Assembly: GCA_046759445.1 (NCBI GenBank)
Contig: JBHICG010000007.1
Coordinates: 1-64,000, forward strand
Length of the DNA: 64,000 nt
Direction: 5' to 3'
DNA from: Candidatus Scalinduaceae bacterium
Lineage (GTDB): Bacteria; Planctomycetota; Brocadiia; Brocadiales; Scalinduaceae
Shown here in pieces: positions 32,086-44,880 of this stretch. Below the pieces are notes generated by a model, which did not search any database, was not told where the DNA came from, and was given only the letters and a program-made list of their open reading frames with translations. Each line of letters begins with the position of its first letter. Position 1 is the stretch's first letter. The position numbers and the translations under genes were made by a program.

Positions 32086-32940
32086 ATGATTATGTCGGGT
32101 AAGAAACCCAAACTACTTGTAAAAATGGAATATTGTAGGGCGCATTTCTTATGCGCCATATATTGATTACTGAAAATTCAGAGTAATTCTCTGACTGCCG
32201 GCAGACCAGCCTATCGGTTGGACAGGTAGGCAAAGGATGTCTTTGTAGGGGTTCAAGATTTTGAATCCGTACAACAAAATTTTGGATAGGCGCTGCAATT
32301 GAAGTGCATCGGCGCCTTGGGCCAGGGTTGTTAGGAATTTCAATCATAGTTTCCCCCCACTTCTTGCTTTCGCATCGTGCCGATACGGTGCAAGAAAGCA
32401 GTGGGGGGATTAAGACCTGCCCTGGTGCGATCCGCCCTTCGGTTTGGGCCAGGGGGTGTGTAGATATTCCGTCCCTTCCTTAAGAAGGGCATACACACCC
32501 CTGGCCCCTCTTTTTAGAGGGGAGTTTGAAAGTCGCTCGCCGAAGCGAGCCTAACTTGAGAATTAGTTTTTGGTAATCTGCTATTTCACAAAGGTAAAAG
32601 GTGCGATATCTTAAGGAATATTACTTAACAGGACAGGCGTAGGGTGGATTAAGGCTGTCAGGCCGAATCCACCAAAAACGTCTGTGTGGTATTATTGTCT
32701 ATGAGTTAATATAGGAGGGTTTATCAACGAGGAGGCTGTTATTTCTTTACGGTTGTGACATTTAAGAGATTTAAGGATAAGGGCGGATTCGCTTTGTCAC
32801 CCTGAACTTGTTTCAGGGTCTCTTAACATATTGATACATATAGATTCTGACCCCCATAGCTTCCTTGCGTAAGCTAGGAATGGGGGCAGAATGACACTTT
32901 TGGATATTTGGGTTTTCCGCAACAGATACTAAGTAGAAGC
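32086..32940. repeat. 855-bp intra-operon spacer built from at least 8 nested palindromic elements
   Basis: GTAG REPs at 32135, 32245 and 32639; cccc/gggg pair at 32352-32524; GTCA pair at 32795-32896; several inserted modules. Confidence 0.8.
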
Positions 32941-33366
32941 ATGAAAGAACATATTATAATACGAACTGTTTCAAAATTTTTTACCCCTTTTATCAAATTG
33001 TATGCATTTTACGTTATTGCTCATGGTGACCTCGGTCCTGGCGGTGGTTTTCAAGGGGGTGTAATTTTGGGCGCAAGCATGATCTTATATGTAATTACAT
33101 TTGGCATGGATGAAGGCCGAAAGAGGGTATCGCAGAAAATTGGCGATATCTTTATGTCAACAGGTGTTTTGTTATATGCGGGGATTGGGTTGTTTTGTAT
33201 ATTAGCAGGAGGGGCATATCTGGAATATGCAGAACTTCCTCTAGGTTCGCATCATCTTGCAAGCCATTTAGGTATCTACGGCATTGAAATAGGCGTAGGG
33301 ATTACAGTTGCTTTTGTGATGATAACAATATTCTTTGAAACGGCAAGGAAAGAAAGGGAGCAGTAG
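32941..33366 (+). CDS. mrpB: Mrp antiporter subunit B
   Basis: HGDLGPGGGFQGG, IEIGVGITV; start moved to the ATG at 32941. Confidence 0.92.
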   Translation: MKEHIIIRTVSKFFTPFIKLYAFYVIAHGDLGPGGGFQGGVILGASMILYVITFGMDEGRKRVSQKIGDIFMSTGVLLYAGIGLFCILAGGAYLEYAELPLGSHHLASHLGIYGIEIGVGITVAFVMITIFFETARKEREQ

Positions 33367-33486
33367 TGCCCCTGTAATATTTTTTTCATTTTTTGGCAAA
33401 AAAAATTAAGAATTCAGGAATTGGGGAATTCAGGAATTCCTTAATTCCTCAATATTATAATTCTGACTCGTTCGGGTTAGACAATC

Positions 33487-33876
33487 ATGACTGATGTAAT
33501 TTATTTTATTCAGACAAAATATTACTATTTAGTAGTTATATTCCTCATGATGATTGGACTTTATACAACGATATCTTCGAGGAATCTTATAAAAAAGGTT
33601 ATAGGTATAAATATCTTTCAGATCTCAGTCTTTCTATTTTATATTGCAATGGCTAAGGTTAAACACGGAACGGCTCCTATATTGTGGGAGAAGGCCCATG
33701 TTTACGATAATCCTCTCCCTCATGTGCTTATCCTTACCGCTATAGTTGTTTCTGTAAGCACAACTGCGGTTGCTCTTGCCCTTATAATAAATATTCATAA
33801 AGAATATGGAACGATTGAAGAAGACAGGATCATAGCAAAGCAAAAACTAGATATCGATAGGGGCAACATAACATAG
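33487..33876 (+). CDS. mrpC: Mrp antiporter subunit C
   Basis: NLIKKVIG, NPLPHVLILTAIVV. Confidence 0.93.
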   Translation: MTDVIYFIQTKYYYLVVIFLMMIGLYTTISSRNLIKKVIGINIFQISVFLFYIAMAKVKHGTAPILWEKAHVYDNPLPHVLILTAIVVSVSTTAVALALIINIHKEYGTIEEDRIIAKQKLDIDRGNIT

Positions 33877-33877
33877 C

Positions 33878-35401
33878 ATGAAATTCATTCAAGAGTTACC
33901 AGTCCTCATAATTGTCATTCCTCTTATCTTTGCGCTTATAATCCCTCTGGTAGGTAGATTAAACAGACTTCTCCCATGGGTTATTGCGTCAACCATAACA
34001 TTCTTTTGCTTTCTAACCTCCATTTCCCTTCTTATTACTGTCCTGGATACAGGGAAGATAAGTTACTGGTTAGGCGGTTGGGAACCACCCTGGGGGATAG
34101 AGTATGCGATTGATTACCTGAATGCATTTGTGCTGGCAGTTGTTTCATTTATTGCCTTTATTGTTTCTCTTTATTCAAGGAGGAGCGTAGAGTTAGAGAT
34201 TAATGAAGACAAACAATCAGCGTTTTACTGCATATATATGCTTTTTATTACAGGGCTCATGGGGATAGTCATAACAGGTGATATCTTCAATATATATGTA
34301 TTTTTAGAGATTTCCTCTCTTGCAGGATATGCCCTGATTGCCATTGGAAAGAAAAGGGAGGCCCTTGTAGCAAGCTATAATTATCTTATATTAGGTACCA
34401 TTGCCGCCACATTTATACTAATCGGTATCGGTTACATTTATATGGCAACAGGTACTCTAAATATTGGCGATCTACAAGAAAGATTACCGGCATTATTTCA
34501 TTCAAAGATGGTATTAGTTGCCCTCGCATTTTTCACGGTAGGCCTTAGTCTGAAACTTGCCTTATTCCCATTACATACCTGGCTTCCTGGCGCCTATACA
34601 CATGCCCCCTCAGTTGTGAGTTGCATAATGGCCGCAACAGCGACAAAGGTTGGCGTCTATGCAATGTTAAGGATCATATTTGGTGTTTTTAAAATAGAGT
34701 TTGATATACATTTTATCCCTATTGCAAATATATTAATCGTTATTTCTTCGATGGCCATAATTGCGGGTTCTGCGCTTGCCATTGCACAGACAAATCTTAA
34801 AAGGATGCTTGCGTATTCAAGCGTTGGACAGATAGGGTATATCGTCCTAGGCGCAGTCCTTGCCAACCAGTTAGCAATGACCGGAAGTATTATCCATATA
34901 CTGAATCATGCGTTGATGAAAGGGGCATTGTTTATGGTTGTAGGCTGTATTGTTTACAAGACAGGTATAGAAGATATTTCAGGGTTGAATGGAATGGGTA
35001 AAAAGATGCCGTTCACAATGGCTGTATTTACTATTGCAGGGCTGTCTATGATGGGAGTTCCCCTTACAGTCGGCTTTGTCAGTAAATGGTATATTGCTAT
35101 CGGCGCGCTGAATGCCGGCATGTGGTACCTTATTCCCGTAATAATTACAGGTTCTCTGCTTTCGGCAGTATATGTCTGGAGAATTATCGTAAATATATAC
35201 TTTCCTGAAGAATTACCGGAACACGAATTACAATATACAGACGGTGGGGCCGAAATTGACTACAAGTCACAGTATTCAGAAGCGCCCTGGAGTATGCTGG
35301 CACCTACAATAGCACTTGCCGTGCTTTGTATATATTTTGGAATTACCGCCACAACCCCTCTGTCTATAGCTGAGAAGGCGGCTGTTATGTTGTTGCAATA
35401 A
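33878..35401 (+). CDS. mrpD: Mrp antiporter subunit D family
   Basis: GDIFNIYVFLE, KLALFPLHTWLP, KRMLAYSS, NHALMK. Confidence 0.93.
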   Translation: MKFIQELPVLIIVIPLIFALIIPLVGRLNRLLPWVIASTITFFCFLTSISLLITVLDTGKISYWLGGWEPPWGIEYAIDYLNAFVLAVVSFIAFIVSLYSRRSVELEINEDKQSAFYCIYMLFITGLMGIVITGDIFNIYVFLEISSLAGYALIAIGKKREALVASYNYLILGTIAATFILIGIGYIYMATGTLNIGDLQERLPALFHSKMVLVALAFFTVGLSLKLALFPLHTWLPGAYTHAPSVVSCIMAATATKVGVYAMLRIIFGVFKIEFDIHFIPIANILIVISSMAIIAGSALAIAQTNLKRMLAYSSVGQIGYIVLGAVLANQLAMTGSIIHILNHALMKGALFMVVGCIVYKTGIEDISGLNGMGKKMPFTMAVFTIAGLSMMGVPLTVGFVSKWYIAIGALNAGMWYLIPVIITGSLLSAVYVWRIIVNIYFPEELPEHELQYTDGGAEIDYKSQYSEAPWSMLAPTIALAVLCIYFGITATTPLSIAEKAAVMLLQ

Positions 35402-35880
35402 TACATATTTAGGAATTGAGGGATTCCTGATTCGAACGGGTCGGAACAAGAATATTTTAGATTCCCGTCCGAACGGCATGGCCGGGCGGGTACGAATTAC
35501 GATTTGGAATTCTCAATCCCCCTTAGTCCCCCTTTTCTAAAGGGGGAGATAGGTGGATTTAAATCATAATTTTTTGCTAAAATTGGTCAGGATTAAAGGA
35601 TTGGGGAATTGGGAAATTGATTGACGATTAAATATTGAAGATTTAGAGATTCAGGAGGGACATTACAGCCTTGTCATCCTGAACTCGTTTCAGGATCTTC
35701 GATTTCGGAATCTCTTGGGTTCTAAAGCCAGAGATCCTGAAATAAGCACACTGTGGTTGTACACCAGGATTCAGGATGACAGAGGGGAGATTGGGGAATT
35801 TAGGGTATTAAATATCAAAATTCCTAAATTCTTAAATCCCTTAATTCCTCAATTATTATAATATTTTAAAAGGAAATTTA
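35402..35880. repeat. Intra-operon spacer of nested palindromic elements
   Basis: 8-mer arrays, 27-nt module at 35464-35490, ccccctt..aaggggg hairpin, GTCA pair at 35672-35781 with a 23-nt insert. Confidence 0.8.
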
Positions 35881-35883
35881 ATA

Positions 35884-37368
35884 TTGGAAACAGTTTATTC
35901 ATCTATACCTTTTTACGCATTAATTGTACCGCTCTGTGCCGTTGTTCTTATAGGTATATTCTACAATAAACCAAACCTGCGGGAAACGTGGACGATTTTG
36001 GCCTCTTTTGCTAAATTTGGTTTGATCGTCTCTATGCTTCCAACGATAATTGATGGGAAGGTCATAGAATGTTCTATAGTAACAGTCCTTCCGGGGCTTG
36101 ATATTAGTTTCAGGATCGATGCCCTGGGAATATTCTTTGCCCTCACTGCATCCTTTCTCTGGATTCTTACGTCATTCTATTCTATCGGTTATGTGCGAAC
36201 CCTGAATGAACATGCGCAAACAAGATATTTTATCTGTTTTGCAGTCGCAATATCCGCAACTATAGGTGTTGCGTTTTCTGCAAACATGTTCACAACCTAT
36301 CTTTTTTACGAAATGATCACCTTAAGCACATACCCCCTCGTCGCACATAAGGAGACACCGGAGGCGCGTTCAGGCGCAAAAGTTTATTTTGTTTTTCTCT
36401 TCGGCACCTCTGTAGCATTTCTCCTGAGCGCCATCTTTCTGACATATTATGCAACAGGTACACTTGATTTTTCGAATAGGGGTATATTCAGTGATGCAAG
36501 GGGGAAGGGGTTAAGTGATATATTTCTGATCGTTACCTTTGGCCTCTTTATAGCAGGGACTTCAAAAGCGGCAATGATGCCTTTTCATGCATGGCTTCCT
36601 CGTGCCATGGTCGCTCCTACACCTGTGAGCGCTTTTTTACATGCAGTGGCAGTTGTTAAGTCGGGCATCTTTGTCGTTGTAAAGATAGTTCTTCATTTAT
36701 TCGGGATTAACCTCTTGGCTGAATTGAGACTTGGTATAGTCCTTGCATACTGTGCATCCATTACCATGATAGTTTCATCTATAATCGCCCTCAGGCAGGA
36801 TAACCTGAAGGCAAGGCTTGCATATTCAACGGTTGCCCAGCTTTCATATGTAATATTCGGCGCTGCCCTACTTACGCCTTCAGGTATAACCGGAAGCATT
36901 ATGCATATTGTAATTCATGCATTTGGAAAGATAACGCTCTTTTTCTGTGCCGGGGCTATATATGCCGCGTCTCATAAGACCAAAGTAAGCGAACTTGATG
37001 GGATTGGAAGGAAGATGCCTTTCACCATGACTGCCTTTGCCCTGGCCTCACTCTCAATTATTGGAGTTCCTCCTCTGGGTGGTTTTATAAGCAAGTGGTA
37101 TCTGGCCAAGGGTGTAATAGAAGCAGGGGAAATTCCGATAATTGCCGTCCTCGTAATAAGCACAATACTTAATGCCTGTTACTTTCTCCCTATTGTGTAT
37201 AAGGCATTTTTTAAAGAATTGCCATCGGGCGAAACGGCGGAAAGAAACGAGGCCCCCGCCATTATGGTGGTGCCATTGGTGCTTACGACCGTTGGAACAG
37301 TGCTTTTATTCTTTGTACCATCAATATTTCTTGATCTTGCCAAGATGGTTGTGGCAGGTTTAAATTAA
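35884..37368 (+). CDS. Mrp subunit D/A-like antiporter subunit
   Basis: KAAMMPFHAWLPRAMVAPTPVSAFLHAVAVVK, KARLAYST, HAFGKITLFF. Confidence 0.9.
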   Translation: METVYSSIPFYALIVPLCAVVLIGIFYNKPNLRETWTILASFAKFGLIVSMLPTIIDGKVIECSIVTVLPGLDISFRIDALGIFFALTASFLWILTSFYSIGYVRTLNEHAQTRYFICFAVAISATIGVAFSANMFTTYLFYEMITLSTYPLVAHKETPEARSGAKVYFVFLFGTSVAFLLSAIFLTYYATGTLDFSNRGIFSDARGKGLSDIFLIVTFGLFIAGTSKAAMMPFHAWLPRAMVAPTPVSAFLHAVAVVKSGIFVVVKIVLHLFGINLLAELRLGIVLAYCASITMIVSSIIALRQDNLKARLAYSTVAQLSYVIFGAALLTPSGITGSIMHIVIHAFGKITLFFCAGAIYAASHKTKVSELDGIGRKMPFTMTAFALASLSIIGVPPLGGFISKWYLAKGVIEAGEIPIIAVLVISTILNACYFLPIVYKAFFKELPSGETAERNEAPAIMVVPLVLTTVGTVLLFFVPSIFLDLAKMVVAGLN

Positions 37369-37464
37369 ATATTCAGGCTCAATCAACGGAGCTAAGCTCA
37401 GCTTTGAATGATTGAACAAGCAAGCATTTTACTTTTTGTTTAGCAATTGGAGGAAGATTTTGAT

Positions 37465-37710
37465 ATGAAAAAAGAATTCAATTTTTTCGATAAACCCGGG
37501 AACATAAAGAAATTGAATATTTTTTTCTACGTAACCCTCGGTATTCTTGTTGTGTTAGATTTCTTTATTGAGAAACATCCACATGTTGGATGGGAAAAGA
37601 TACCATCTTCTTATGCCCTTTACGGCTTTCTTTCCTGTGCCGTGATTATTGCCATATCGAAAACACTTGGTAAACTCTGGCTTCAAAAAGGAGAAGATTA
37701 CTATGACTAG
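37465..37710 (+). CDS. Small membrane protein of the Mrp operon
   Basis: Two TMs, YALYGFLSC, ends EDYYD; overlaps the start of the next gene. Confidence 0.8.
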   Translation: MKKEFNFFDKPGNIKKLNIFFYVTLGILVVLDFFIEKHPHVGWEKIPSSYALYGFLSCAVIIAISKTLGKLWLQKGEDYYD

Positions 37711-39514
37711 CTTTATACCCCCAGTGTCATTTTTTATTTTTGGGGCGGTTCTATTCTTATTTATAAGGGGAAATGTACTCAGGGTGTTCCTGCTCTTGAT
37801 TCCAGCCATTACATTTATGAACCTTGTTAATATGCCGGAGGGAACACATTACACCATTAACTTCCTTGATTTTGAGATAATTTTCTGCAAGGTTGATAAA
37901 ATGAGCAAGGTTTTTGGATATATTTTTGTGATCATGACTTTTGCGGGAAACCTTTTTTCAATCCATTTAAAAACAAGGGACGAACACATTGCTGCCTTAT
38001 TATATGCCGGAGGGTCTTTAGGTGTTGTTTTTGCGGGAGATTATTTCTCTCTATTTGTCTTTTGGGAGCTTATGGCAGTTGCCTCAACTTATCTCATATG
38101 GGCGCGTAAAACTAAGGCAGCCAAAGATGCGGGATTCAGGTATGTTATAATACATTTTCTTGGCGGTCAATTTCTTTTTGCCGGAATAATTATATATGTA
38201 GTATCCACCGGATCTATAAGTTTTGGCTACCTTGGTCTAAATGGACCTGCTTCATGGTTGATCCTTCTTGGATTCATCTTGAATGCGGCTGTACCGCCAT
38301 TCTCTGCATGGCTCTCTGATGCATATCCGGAATCAACTGTTACAGGTACTGTTTTTTTGAGTGCATTTACAACCAAAACGGCTGTTTATGTGCTTGCAAG
38401 AGCCTTTCCTGGCGAACAAATACTAATGTGGGCAGGGATTGTAATGGTTGTATACGGGATTGTTTATGCACTCATCGAAAACGATATGAGAAGAGTTTTA
38501 TCCTATAGCATAATGAACCAGGTGGGTTTTATGATTACGGGAATAGGAATTGGGACTACGCTGGCGATAAATGGTGCTGTATCACACGCCTTTGCACATA
38601 TATTGTACAAGGCACTTTTAATGATGTCAGCAGGTGCGGTACTCTTTATGACTAATAAGAGCAAGTGTACTGAATTGGGCGGTTTATACAAGACTATGCC
38701 AATTACTCTTATATTGTGTTGTGTTGGAGCAGCTTCTATTTCCGGATTTCCTCTAACAGGTGGATTTACAACCAAATCAATGATAATTGCTGCCGCAGGA
38801 AGTGAACACCTCAGTGTTATATGGCATCTCTTGATGCTTGCCTCGGCAGGTGTTTTCCTGCATGCAGGTATCAAGTTCCCTTATTTTGTCTTTTTTGCAA
38901 AAGATTCAGGTTTGAGGCCAAAAGAACCTCCAATTAATATGCTTCTTGCCATGGGGCTTCTATCCATTTTATGCATACTTGTAGGTGTTTGGCCTGAAGC
39001 ACTTTACCGGATATTACCTTATCCTGTTGACTTTGTTCCTTATACGGGCGCTCATGTGGTTGGCCAGCTTCAGATTCTTATGTTTTCGGCCCTTGCTTTC
39101 TTTGTGCTCTTAAAATTTCTTAAGCGGACAGAGACAATAAGCCTGGATACCGATTGGTTCTATAGAAAAGCTACTATGGGATTCCTCTGGCTTCTGGAAA
39201 ATCCATTGGCCTGGTTTGGTAATCAGGTTAGGACCACAATTTTTGCAACCATTCCCCAATCTTGTATATGGTTCAGCAGGAACCCTCTGTTGGCTTTAAA
39301 GGTGGCTGGTAACTATATAGTGATTGCGATATTTGAGGAACAATTTACTAAAGAAAAGGTAGAAAGGATAAGGAGTCGAATAGTAGAGAAAATGACTGTC
39401 TATCCCGGGAATGTAATCAGATACTCGCATGTTGGTACAACTGTAATCTGGGTAATGGGATTTTTGTTGGCATATTTGATAATATATATTGTTTCAGGCA
39501 GAATAGTTGTATAA
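37703..39514 (+). CDS. Mrp subunit D/A-like antiporter subunit (long form)
   Basis: FWELMA, NAAVPPFSAWLSDAYPE, FTTKTAVY, HAFAHILYKALL; start moved to the ATG at 37703. Confidence 0.9.
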   Translation: MTSFIPPVSFFIFGAVLFLFIRGNVLRVFLLLIPAITFMNLVNMPEGTHYTINFLDFEIIFCKVDKMSKVFGYIFVIMTFAGNLFSIHLKTRDEHIAALLYAGGSLGVVFAGDYFSLFVFWELMAVASTYLIWARKTKAAKDAGFRYVIIHFLGGQFLFAGIIIYVVSTGSISFGYLGLNGPASWLILLGFILNAAVPPFSAWLSDAYPESTVTGTVFLSAFTTKTAVYVLARAFPGEQILMWAGIVMVVYGIVYALIENDMRRVLSYSIMNQVGFMITGIGIGTTLAINGAVSHAFAHILYKALLMMSAGAVLFMTNKSKCTELGGLYKTMPITLILCCVGAASISGFPLTGGFTTKSMIIAAAGSEHLSVIWHLLMLASAGVFLHAGIKFPYFVFFAKDSGLRPKEPPINMLLAMGLLSILCILVGVWPEALYRILPYPVDFVPYTGAHVVGQLQILMFSALAFFVLLKFLKRTETISLDTDWFYRKATMGFLWLLENPLAWFGNQVRTTIFATIPQSCIWFSRNPLLALKVAGNYIVIAIFEEQFTKEKVERIRSRIVEKMTVYPGNVIRYSHVGTTVIWVMGFLLAYLIIYIVSGRIVV

Positions 39515-39529
39515 AAAAGGTAAAAGTTT

Positions 39530-39995
39530 AGCCCACCGCAAAGCCGCACCCGTCCGAACGGCATGGCCGGGCGGGAAGAGCGCAAAGGAAACCAAAAGTG
39601 ATAAAGGAAGTAGGGGTTCAAAATTTTGAACCCGTACAACAAAATTTTGAATAGGTTAGGTGCTGCAATTGAAGTGCATCGCCATCTTGGGCTAGGGTTG
39701 TTAGAATCAGAAACATAGGGTGGATTAAGCCCCTACAGCTTGCTAGCGCAAGCTAGCAGTGGGGGCGAATCCACCTTTTTATTCGCCAAATCAATCTATT
39801 TTTGGTGGTTTCGGCCTACTCCATTAATCAATTTAAGAAACACTCATACTCTCAGAGATGACGGATAAGTGGAAAGAACATAGTGCATCACATGTTGGTC
39901 ATTGGCAATTCCGCTGTTCCGGAATTGCTTAGGTGATTATGCCTGTCCTTCGGACAGATAAGAAGAATCACACCCCGACTCCGATCGGGAATCTA
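39530..39995. repeat. Cluster of nested palindromic elements after the Mrp operon
   Basis: 27-nt module at 39549-39575, ~90-bp repeat at 39610-39704, GTAG REP at 39715-39775, GTCA REP at 39933-39994. Confidence 0.8.
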
Positions 39996-44825: not shown

Positions 44826-44880
44826 AATATTTTGCCCCCTCTGCTATCTTGTGATAACAAGATGAGGGGGTCAAAATATT
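44826..44880. terminator. Strong hairpin, likely terminator of the 44900-46351 gene
   Basis: aatattttg-ccccctc..atcttgt/acaagat..gaggggg-caaaatatt followed by a T run. Confidence 0.6.

Follow-up and report, generated by a model that had tools for sequence, protein, structure and literature searches.

The 64,000-nt stretch at positions 1 to 64,000 of contig JBHICG010000007.1 (assembly GCA_046759445.1, Candidatus Scalinduaceae bacterium; hereafter the window) contains, in the loops of several longer palindromes, a short module in which a run of C residues and a run of G residues enclose a small self-complementary core. The question raised by this locus is what kind of element the module represents and how a hairpin of this size could come to occupy the tips of other, unrelated hairpins. 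A first-pass annotation of the window reported three copies, at 32353-32408, 32851-32886, and 39730-39765, and interpreted them as copies of a micro-element that occupies loops of other repeats; all three copies were confirmed letter for letter, and the interpretation is borne out by further copies in the genome and by hosts that include repetitive extragenic palindromes (REPs). The module is repeated, is located at the apex of other hairpins in several unrelated hosts as well as in other modules, and covaries in both of its helices. On balance, we favor the view that it is a non-autonomous hairpin cassette at the DNA level, of the REP or small dispersed repeat (SDR) kind, that is lodged at hairpin tips.

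A 22-nt core in two registers

The module is a hairpin of approximately 36 nt in which a clamp of the form C4-6NN / NNG4-6 encloses a core of 22 nt. The core follows the layout P-T-Q-T-P | Q'-A-P'-A-Q', with P and Q denoting triplets, the latter TGC in most cases, and constitutes an inverted repeat with 11-nt arms that are 4 nt out of register; it can therefore form either of two hairpins, each consisting of 7 bp and a tetraloop. In one helix (H1), core positions 1-7 pair with positions 12-18, with positions 8-11 as the loop and positions 19-22 as a 3' bulge; in the other helix (H2), positions 5-11 pair with positions 16-22, with positions 12-15 as the loop and positions 1-4 as a 5' bulge. H1 and H2 are mutually offset by 4 nt and, because they have nucleotides in common, are mutually exclusive. 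The two inner pairings of four plus four nucleotides for which the first-pass annotation had described compensatory changes are present and represent the outer four pairs of H1 and H2.

With RNA parameters, H1 and H2 were predicted to lie within approximately 1.6 kcal/mol of each other on both strands for the subfamilies of the module designated A, B, and D and for a divergent fourth type, and with DNA parameters the two were predicted to lie within 0.8 kcal/mol on both strands for subfamilies A and B; folding energies for subfamily C are unreliable because each helix has a mismatch. These predictions support a core that could switch between two nearly isoenergetic helices. The fold had initially been described as "pseudoknot-like or switchable"; the second half of this description is supported, and the first half is not, as no linkers are present and the clamp closes the structure. 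The reverse complement of the module has identical architecture, so that either strand of single-stranded DNA can display the same object; on either strand, the conformer with the 5' bulge starts with the clamp, which is followed by NNCT in unpaired form and by a stem of 7 bp, the loop of which usually has G first and A last. Register-shifted double palindromes were also seen outside of the module, as an unrelated 22-mer with the same architecture (ATTCAGGAATTCCTTAATTCCT) is located at 33424-33450 and near position 1929 of contig C117, and a third family (GCCTGTCTGCCGACAGGCAGGC) is found on other contigs, where it partly adjoins subfamily-A modules.

Copy number, covarying helices, and spread among genomes

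In the anammox-type source genome (3.62 Mb, 37% G+C, 145 contigs), 63 22-mers that are not of low complexity have at least 6/7 pairs in both helices, compared to a mean of 16.4 in 10 block shuffles, and about 41 of these 63 carry the C-run/G-run clamp (manual count). Once central inserts of up to 120 nt are allowed, the genome contains 69 distinct modules, including 21 and 17 subfamily-A copies, 10 and 6 subfamily-B copies, and 6 and 6 subfamily-C copies in the + and - orientation, respectively, as well as a single subfamily-D copy in the - orientation and 2 unassigned copies; degenerate copies exist in addition to these 69. Short probes for the core centre and the arms, aimed at CRISPR spacers derived from the element, gave no match beyond catalogued or degenerate copies; no search aimed at the array itself was made. 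By itself, the looser CCCC...GGGG pattern shows no enrichment across the window, with 16 overlapping matches as compared to 8.5 expected. Longer arrays of the underlying 8-mer were searched for and not found, which argues against an origin of the module from a tandem array and indicates that the 11-nt arms with their 4-nt offset represent a fixed geometry.

Covariation was assessed in an alignment of 75 distinct 34-mers, comprising the three window copies and 72 matches, from scans of public genomes and of viral contigs, to a pattern that fixes the clamp and the Q triplets only; approximately 17 to 21 chance matches to the pattern were kept in this alignment, and 21 loci of the genome scan and 4 of the viral scan fail the criterion of at least 6/7 pairs in both helices (manual count). 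Among these 34-mers, which are mutually related, 89.6% and 90.2% of cells are paired in H1 and H2, respectively, with covariation scores of 0.255 and 0.274 as compared to 0.090 and 0.091 after shuffling. With none of 500 shuffles reaching the score of H1 or H2, both pairings covary beyond chance when more copies are included, as had been anticipated from the three initial copies. Sliding the partners by 1-3 columns, as a control, gave pairing of 46-60%, and the P positions, which are unconstrained by the pattern, vary together as U-A, G-C, C-G, and A-U pairs.

The exact pattern was found in 4 of 41 relatives, i.e., all 3 genomes of the genus and one genome of another genus, and in none of 400 other genomes sampled across the phylum. 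A public scan that used one genome per species identified at least 118 loci; among the matches listed, 97 of 118 have at least 6/7 pairs in both helices (manual count), the commonest form of the module is nearly identical across matches, and variants alter P and P' together. Record titles among the matches listed represent about eight phylum-level groups and include Pirellulales, Phycisphaerae, Sedimentisphaerales, Candidatus Scalindua, Omnitrophota, Elusimicrobia, Desantisbacteria, Thermodesulfovibrionia, Aegiribacteria, Auribacterota, and a Roseivirgaceae metagenome-assembled genome (MAG), a taxonomic spread that is taken from record names and to which mis-binned MAG contigs may contribute. 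Outside of Scalindua-like genomes, copy number is low, with 2-4 copies of the module in each of four genomes checked. In a scan of viral contigs, five of nine matches represent true modules; collections of plasmids and cultured phages yielded no match. A perfect flanking stem of at least 5 bp was present at 35 of 101 public loci among the matches listed, as compared to 10% in permuted controls, and placement at an apex is therefore enriched yet not universal.

Host hairpins and the tips that the module occupies

Four modules, all read on the + strand, were identified in the window, and folding predicts that every one of them extends a longer flanking host hairpin (z-scores of -5.7 to -9.7), such that the claim in the first-pass annotation that each copy sits in the loop of a different host palindrome holds for all copies. 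Copy 1 (32353..32408; subfamily A in + orientation) has a clamp of 8 nt on each side (32353-32360 and 32401-32408) and core arms of 11 nt each (32361-32371 and 32390-32400), and carries at the exact core centre an 18-nt insert with the potential to form a secondary hairpin (32372..32389, + strand); this insert recurs in other subfamily-A copies of the genome, has a compensatory variant of its own, and is predicted to lengthen the H2 helix. The host of copy 1 is a larger composite repeat with a long, imperfect hairpin. Copy 2 (32851..32886; subfamily C, core at 32858-32879) is an uninterrupted 36-mer with a single mismatch in H1 and a single mismatch in H2, and its host is a CGTC/TGTC-type REP hairpin on the - strand (32842..32897; arms AGATTCTGA and CAGAATGAC) with a minus-strand tag of GTC. 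This host fits the CGTC/TGTC family, as characterized in parts of PMC3733652, by its tag, its stem starting with AT, and its short tail, and it forms an inverted doublet with a module-free REP of the same type that has a short loop (32796..32822, + strand).

Copy 3 (39730..39765; subfamily B, core at 39737-39758) is likewise an uninterrupted 36-mer, with one T.G mismatch in the clamp, and stands in place of the apical mini-hairpin of a GTAG-type REP on the + strand (39715..39775; arms GGTGGATTAAG and CGAATCCACC); the tag of this REP is ATAG, as compared to GTAG in most copies, and the REP is followed by a T-run. A REP of the same family without a module, located at 32639..32673 (+ strand; loop GCTGTCAGGC), provides an empty socket for comparison. 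Copy 4 (44835..44870; core at 44842-44863) belongs to a divergent subfamily, with 6/7 pairs in H1 and 7/7 pairs in H2, and represents the apex of a palindrome at 44826-44880. A repeat of approximately 100 nt, located upstream of copies 1 and 3 at 32246-32345 and 39612-39712, starts with a GTAG-tagged hairpin (GGGTTCAA...TTGAACCC) and thus probably represents a further REP family. A nested C-run palindrome with a simple loop at 35518-35546 (CCCCCTTAGTCCCCCTTTTCTAAAGGGGG) represents the module-free form of one type of host, and C-run clamps genome-wide enclose either loops of 9-10 nt or fillers of 26-27 nt, the latter being of core size. At 39530-39570, the window has a GC-rich hairpin of approximately 37 nt that the matching place of a related genome lacks, and a nearby REP that is loopless in the window has a 21-nt apical filler in the relative (locus L155).

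Genome-wide, the module was found in 2 of 19 listed copies of the GTAG-type REP that hosts copy 3, and two further module-bearing copies are located at contig ends; copies of this REP without a module have loops of 5-10 nt, the exception being one doubtful row with a 27-nt filler. Among 68 CGTC/TGTC-type REPs with exact 6-nt stems, 16 have a module, which may belong to subfamily A, B, or C and may be in either orientation relative to the tag. Modules are further hosted by nested C-run palindromes, by a larger composite repeat, and by other modules, and some are located at unique sites. A conserved unpaired GTAG or CGTC/TGTC tag is not found on the module itself; its flanks vary, and the tags belong to the hosts. 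Where one module is nested in another, the outer module retains a 3-bp stub and a 4-nt bulge and has lost approximately 12-14 nt, and this arrangement thus looks like replacement rather than simple insertion; target duplications were not seen when the sequences of nested and hosted modules were read. Central inserts in modules measure 18 or 22 nt, as well as 1, 8-9, 21, and 42 nt, and are always located at the exact core centre, after CTTGC on one strand; one 22-nt insert occupies the same position in subfamilies A, C, and D. Both the 18-nt and the 22-nt inserts resemble still smaller hairpin elements in their own right. Doublets of REPs with one module per arm, approximately 58 nt apart, were found on contigs C13 and C30, and another doublet surrounds copy 2; all three doublets are built by the host REPs, and the majority of modules are single hairpins.

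Two informative orthologous sites, both of which lie on other contigs and were taken from the set of modules that overlap open reading frames (ORFs), allowed for comparisons among relatives. The first lies within a gene for a membrane protein, where a nested C-run hairpin with a loop of 9 nt is all that one relative carries; in the source genome, this loop is replaced by a core and the 18-nt insert, and two other relatives have yet other fillers. At locus L177 (contig C1, 107454-108950), a membrane-protein ORF of 498 aa remains open across a nested-hairpin insertion of approximately 90 nt that includes the module, and three relatives show different fillers in the same codon region. The second orthologous site has four different hairpin elements in four genomes. 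At these sites, sockets persist, with turnover of the apical cassettes.

With regard to genomic context, 57 of the 62 classifiable modules are intergenic and five are located within ORFs, based on a crude ORF set that covers approximately 78% of the genome. Flanking genes are arranged in tandem in 47 cases and are convergent and divergent in 5 cases each, which is near the share of intergenic bases. A terminator scan flagged no module, its sole flag being part of a stem (39759-39774) within the host of copy 3, and interpretation of the module as an intrinsic terminator was rejected on this basis. Assembled contigs from sequencing runs stop at module edges, where the joints are ambiguous.

Possible movement of the module and its place among known repeats

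We propose that the module may reach hairpin tips as a copy, by an exchange of apical cassettes on single-stranded DNA that would depend either on a structure-specific enzyme acting in trans or on template switching at stalled hairpins, and that it would afterwards hitch-hike as its host REP multiplies. Such template switching would account for replacement in the absence of duplication, but by itself leaves entry into hosts that lack homology to the module unexplained. The register shift would let both strands offer a tetranucleotide plus a small hairpin, i.e., the substrate geometry of Y1 HUH enzymes, and with this geometry on both strands the module may work like two overlapped REP units, one per strand, within 22 nt. 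According to PMC6006769, what Y1 HUH enzymes read on REPs, and likewise at the ends of IS200/IS605, is a guide tetranucleotide located 5' of the foot of a hairpin. A broader proposal, which we regard as possible and advance with considerable reserve, would be that the module represents the minimal unit of an undescribed class of mobile DNA, namely a two-strand REP of 22 nt, enclosed by a G/C clamp, that cassette exchange inserts into existing hairpin tips without target duplication or a linked transposase gene and that moves between phyla on viruses or foreign DNA, with the 4-nt register shift serving to give either strand the same tetranucleotide-plus-hairpin substrate.

A search of the source genome for a candidate mobilising activity identified 22 Y1_Tnp (PF01797) matches in several size classes, including a multi-copy class of 225 aa, often at contig ends, proteins of 320-330 aa with a long C-terminal extension, and classes of 178 and 184 aa. 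Comparison of the flanks of the 69 genome modules and of 102 public loci listed did not reveal a tetranucleotide rule for insertion of the module. A CnGA foot, which has been reported in a section of PMC6006769 for hairpins beside class-3 Y1 genes in Planctomycetes, is present 5' of 19 of the 69 genome modules, in every case via a CGTC-type host, and at 10 of the 102 public loci among the matches listed; a crude motif search by regular expression of six-frame translations found no class-3-like TnpA protein. None of 21 Y1 loci examined is flanked by modules, Y1 genes do not reliably co-occur with them, and the module was thus not assigned to the REPtron or REPIN-RAYT systems; derivation as a miniature element from IS200/IS605 was also rejected, as the hairpins of the resident IS200 differ.

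A number of observations weigh against a mobile hairpin cassette. Among 21 of the 22 Y1_Tnp loci, which were those examined, neither a module nor an arm of a host REP was found within 800 nt, save for two lone CGTC-type tags. No PF01797 match was found in two of five other module-bearing genomes, which as MAGs may be incomplete, or in any of five module-bearing viral fragments, which are possibly incomplete as well. The multi-copy 225-aa Y1 class is present in 23 of 41 relatives, most of which are module-free, and the end hairpins of the resident IS200 copy are unlike the module. No clean pair of an empty and a filled site with simple insertion junctions was found among the orthologous regions, because intergenic regions are too rearranged. 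Composites of a REP and a module are themselves repeated, with one 62-nt unit matched at 98% in another genome, and many copies therefore need not represent independent insertions of the module. Finally, any two of H1, H2, and the P...P direct repeat imply the third, such that these features are interdependent, and G.T and A.C mismatches are few and mixed (24 versus 8 in the inner helices and 6 versus 12 in the clamp).

In a different explanation, the module is not itself mobile but is the enlarged self-complementary loop of tagged REPs and is copied only together with a whole REP or doublet by a RAYT-type transposase. Many modules do sit in GTAG- or CGTC/TGTC-tagged REPs, flanks in other phyla frequently resemble the same CGTC-type REP (among the matches listed), REP-plus-module composites recur as units, including the doublets with a module per arm on contigs C13 and C30, and the 22 Y1_Tnp matches could in principle supply the enzyme; complex self-complementary loops with GC-rich ends have in addition been reported, in parts of PMC3733652, for the GTAG-3 and GTAG-14 REPs. 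We nevertheless judge this explanation unlikely, since no fewer than three unrelated REP families share these same subfamilies, which are also found at unique and intragenic sites and in one another, since only a minority of each host family contains the module, since approximately two thirds of public loci among the matches listed have no perfect flanking stem of at least 5 bp, and since two carrier genomes have no Y1 match. Selection at the RNA level, with the module acting as a terminator, a bistable switch, or a hairpin that stabilises transcripts, would be consistent with the two isoenergetic folds, the G..A tetraloop that closes most 5'-bulged conformers, the intergenic location of the modules, the excess of G.T over A.C mismatches in the inner helices (24 versus 8), the T-run after the host REP of copy 3, and an RNA-library contig that spans 32851-33030, although the latter evidence comes from assembled contigs only and may reflect carry-over of DNA. 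Such a role is quite improbable in light of a module orientation that is about even and not fixed relative to the host tag, a flanking-gene arrangement near background (tandem 47, convergent 5, divergent 5), a terminator scan that flagged the partial stem at 39759-39774 and no module, five modules inside ORFs, and the absence of a match in Rfam.

Covariation might also arise as a mutational by-product of templated (quasi-palindrome) correction in an otherwise neutral repeat. The correction of imperfect palindromes by template switching is well established as a source of mutation, and loops replaced without target duplication look like the outcome of copy-choice, as does the 22-nt insert exchanged at a single position between subfamilies A, C, and D. 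On the other hand, the fixed geometry of 11-nt arms with a 4-nt offset and without longer 8-mer arrays, together with a nearly identical sequence in distant lineages, favors constraint over drift plus correction, and we give this explanation little credence. An H-type pseudoknot, in which the pairings a/a' and b/b' of the first-pass annotation form simultaneously, would account for the a-b-a'-b' order and for covariation of both pairings. The connecting loops of such a pseudoknot must span a groove, but the linkers at the a|b and a'|b' junctions are 0 and 0 nt and the clamp helix holds the ends in place, and from this geometry, which was not computed, we infer that the two pairings would be unable to form at the same time. 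Each 4-bp pairing is moreover part of a 7-bp helix whose formation precludes the other; on steric grounds, a true pseudoknot is implausible and can hardly be credited at all.

The first-pass annotation had not recognized the module as a described family, and this stands with regard to its sequence, as no Rfam family matches the module and searches of the full-text literature found no description of its sequence family; its kind, by contrast, is already known, as REPs with complex loops and nested SDRs. Rfam identified only 2 tRNAs in the whole window, and a permissive scan of 32250-33000 gave only chance-level matches (E of at least 0.32, with scores far below gathering). We know of no transposase for either CGTC-type REPs or cyanobacterial SDRs. 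The closest published concept appears to be the SDRs of Elhai et al. 2008, which are reportedly non-coding repeats of approximately 21-27 nt that are found in Nostocaceae and are inserted precisely in other repeats or palindromes. Like these SDRs, as far as their features can be taken from citing passages, the module has a small core (22 nt, or 26 nt with flanking dinucleotides) at the apex of other repeats; the two are likened by description and differ in taxa. According to PMC4390886 and PMC5861425, SDR5 has its insertion point in HIP1 between bases 3 and 4, and SDRs are reported only in Nostocaceae.

GTAG- and CGTC-tagged REP families, including REPs with complex self-complementary loops, have been described by Di Nocera et al. 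2013 (PMC3733652, in part). According to the same parts of that source, REPs are, like the module, short GC-clamped stem-loops that are mostly extragenic and occasionally intragenic, exist in tens of copies, and are found in Planctomycetes among others, and some have long loops with GC-rich ends and paired interiors. The module resembles them as a short palindromic stem-loop with 69 copies, of which 57 of 62 are intergenic, but it lacks a conserved unpaired terminal tag, sits inside tagged REPs of two super-families, has a register-shifted double palindrome as its interior, and is near-identical in sequence in records named from several phyla. REPINs and the RAYT or TnpA-REP systems, as portrayed by Bertels and Rainey 2011 (PMC3116915) and Quentin et al. 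2018 (PMC6006769), have in common with the module a non-autonomous palindrome that is thought to move as single-stranded DNA and the geometry of a tetranucleotide plus a hairpin; REPINs provide a substrate on both strands via two inverted REPs, whereas the module would do so via overlap within 22 nt. Unlike REPIN-RAYT systems, the module has no flanking RAYT gene (i.e., no REPtron was found), two of its carriers have no Y1 match, and it mostly occurs as single hairpins. The subterminal hairpins of IS200/IS605 elements and of their miniature derivatives, as covered in PMC6006769, also combine a small hairpin with an adjacent tetranucleotide, of which a Y1 HUH transposase reads one strand, but the module forms one undivided unit that lacks distinct left and right ends, and the end hairpins of the resident IS200 differ from it.

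The module is thus an unusual variant of the small mobile palindromes already known from bacteria, set apart by a two-register core that can be folded in two equally good ways. Modules break short-read assemblies, as contigs from sequencing runs end at their edges, and they remodel intergenic regions as well as some coding sequences. Bacterial genomes commonly contain small palindromic repeats, and for the question of how the smallest of these move the module provides a compact and easily recognized test object, with 36 nt, two testable folds, and entry into the loops of two REP super-families. Should a mobilising enzyme indeed read the symmetry of both strands, its minimal substrate would be defined by the module; should no enzyme be required, the module would exemplify structure-templated spread.

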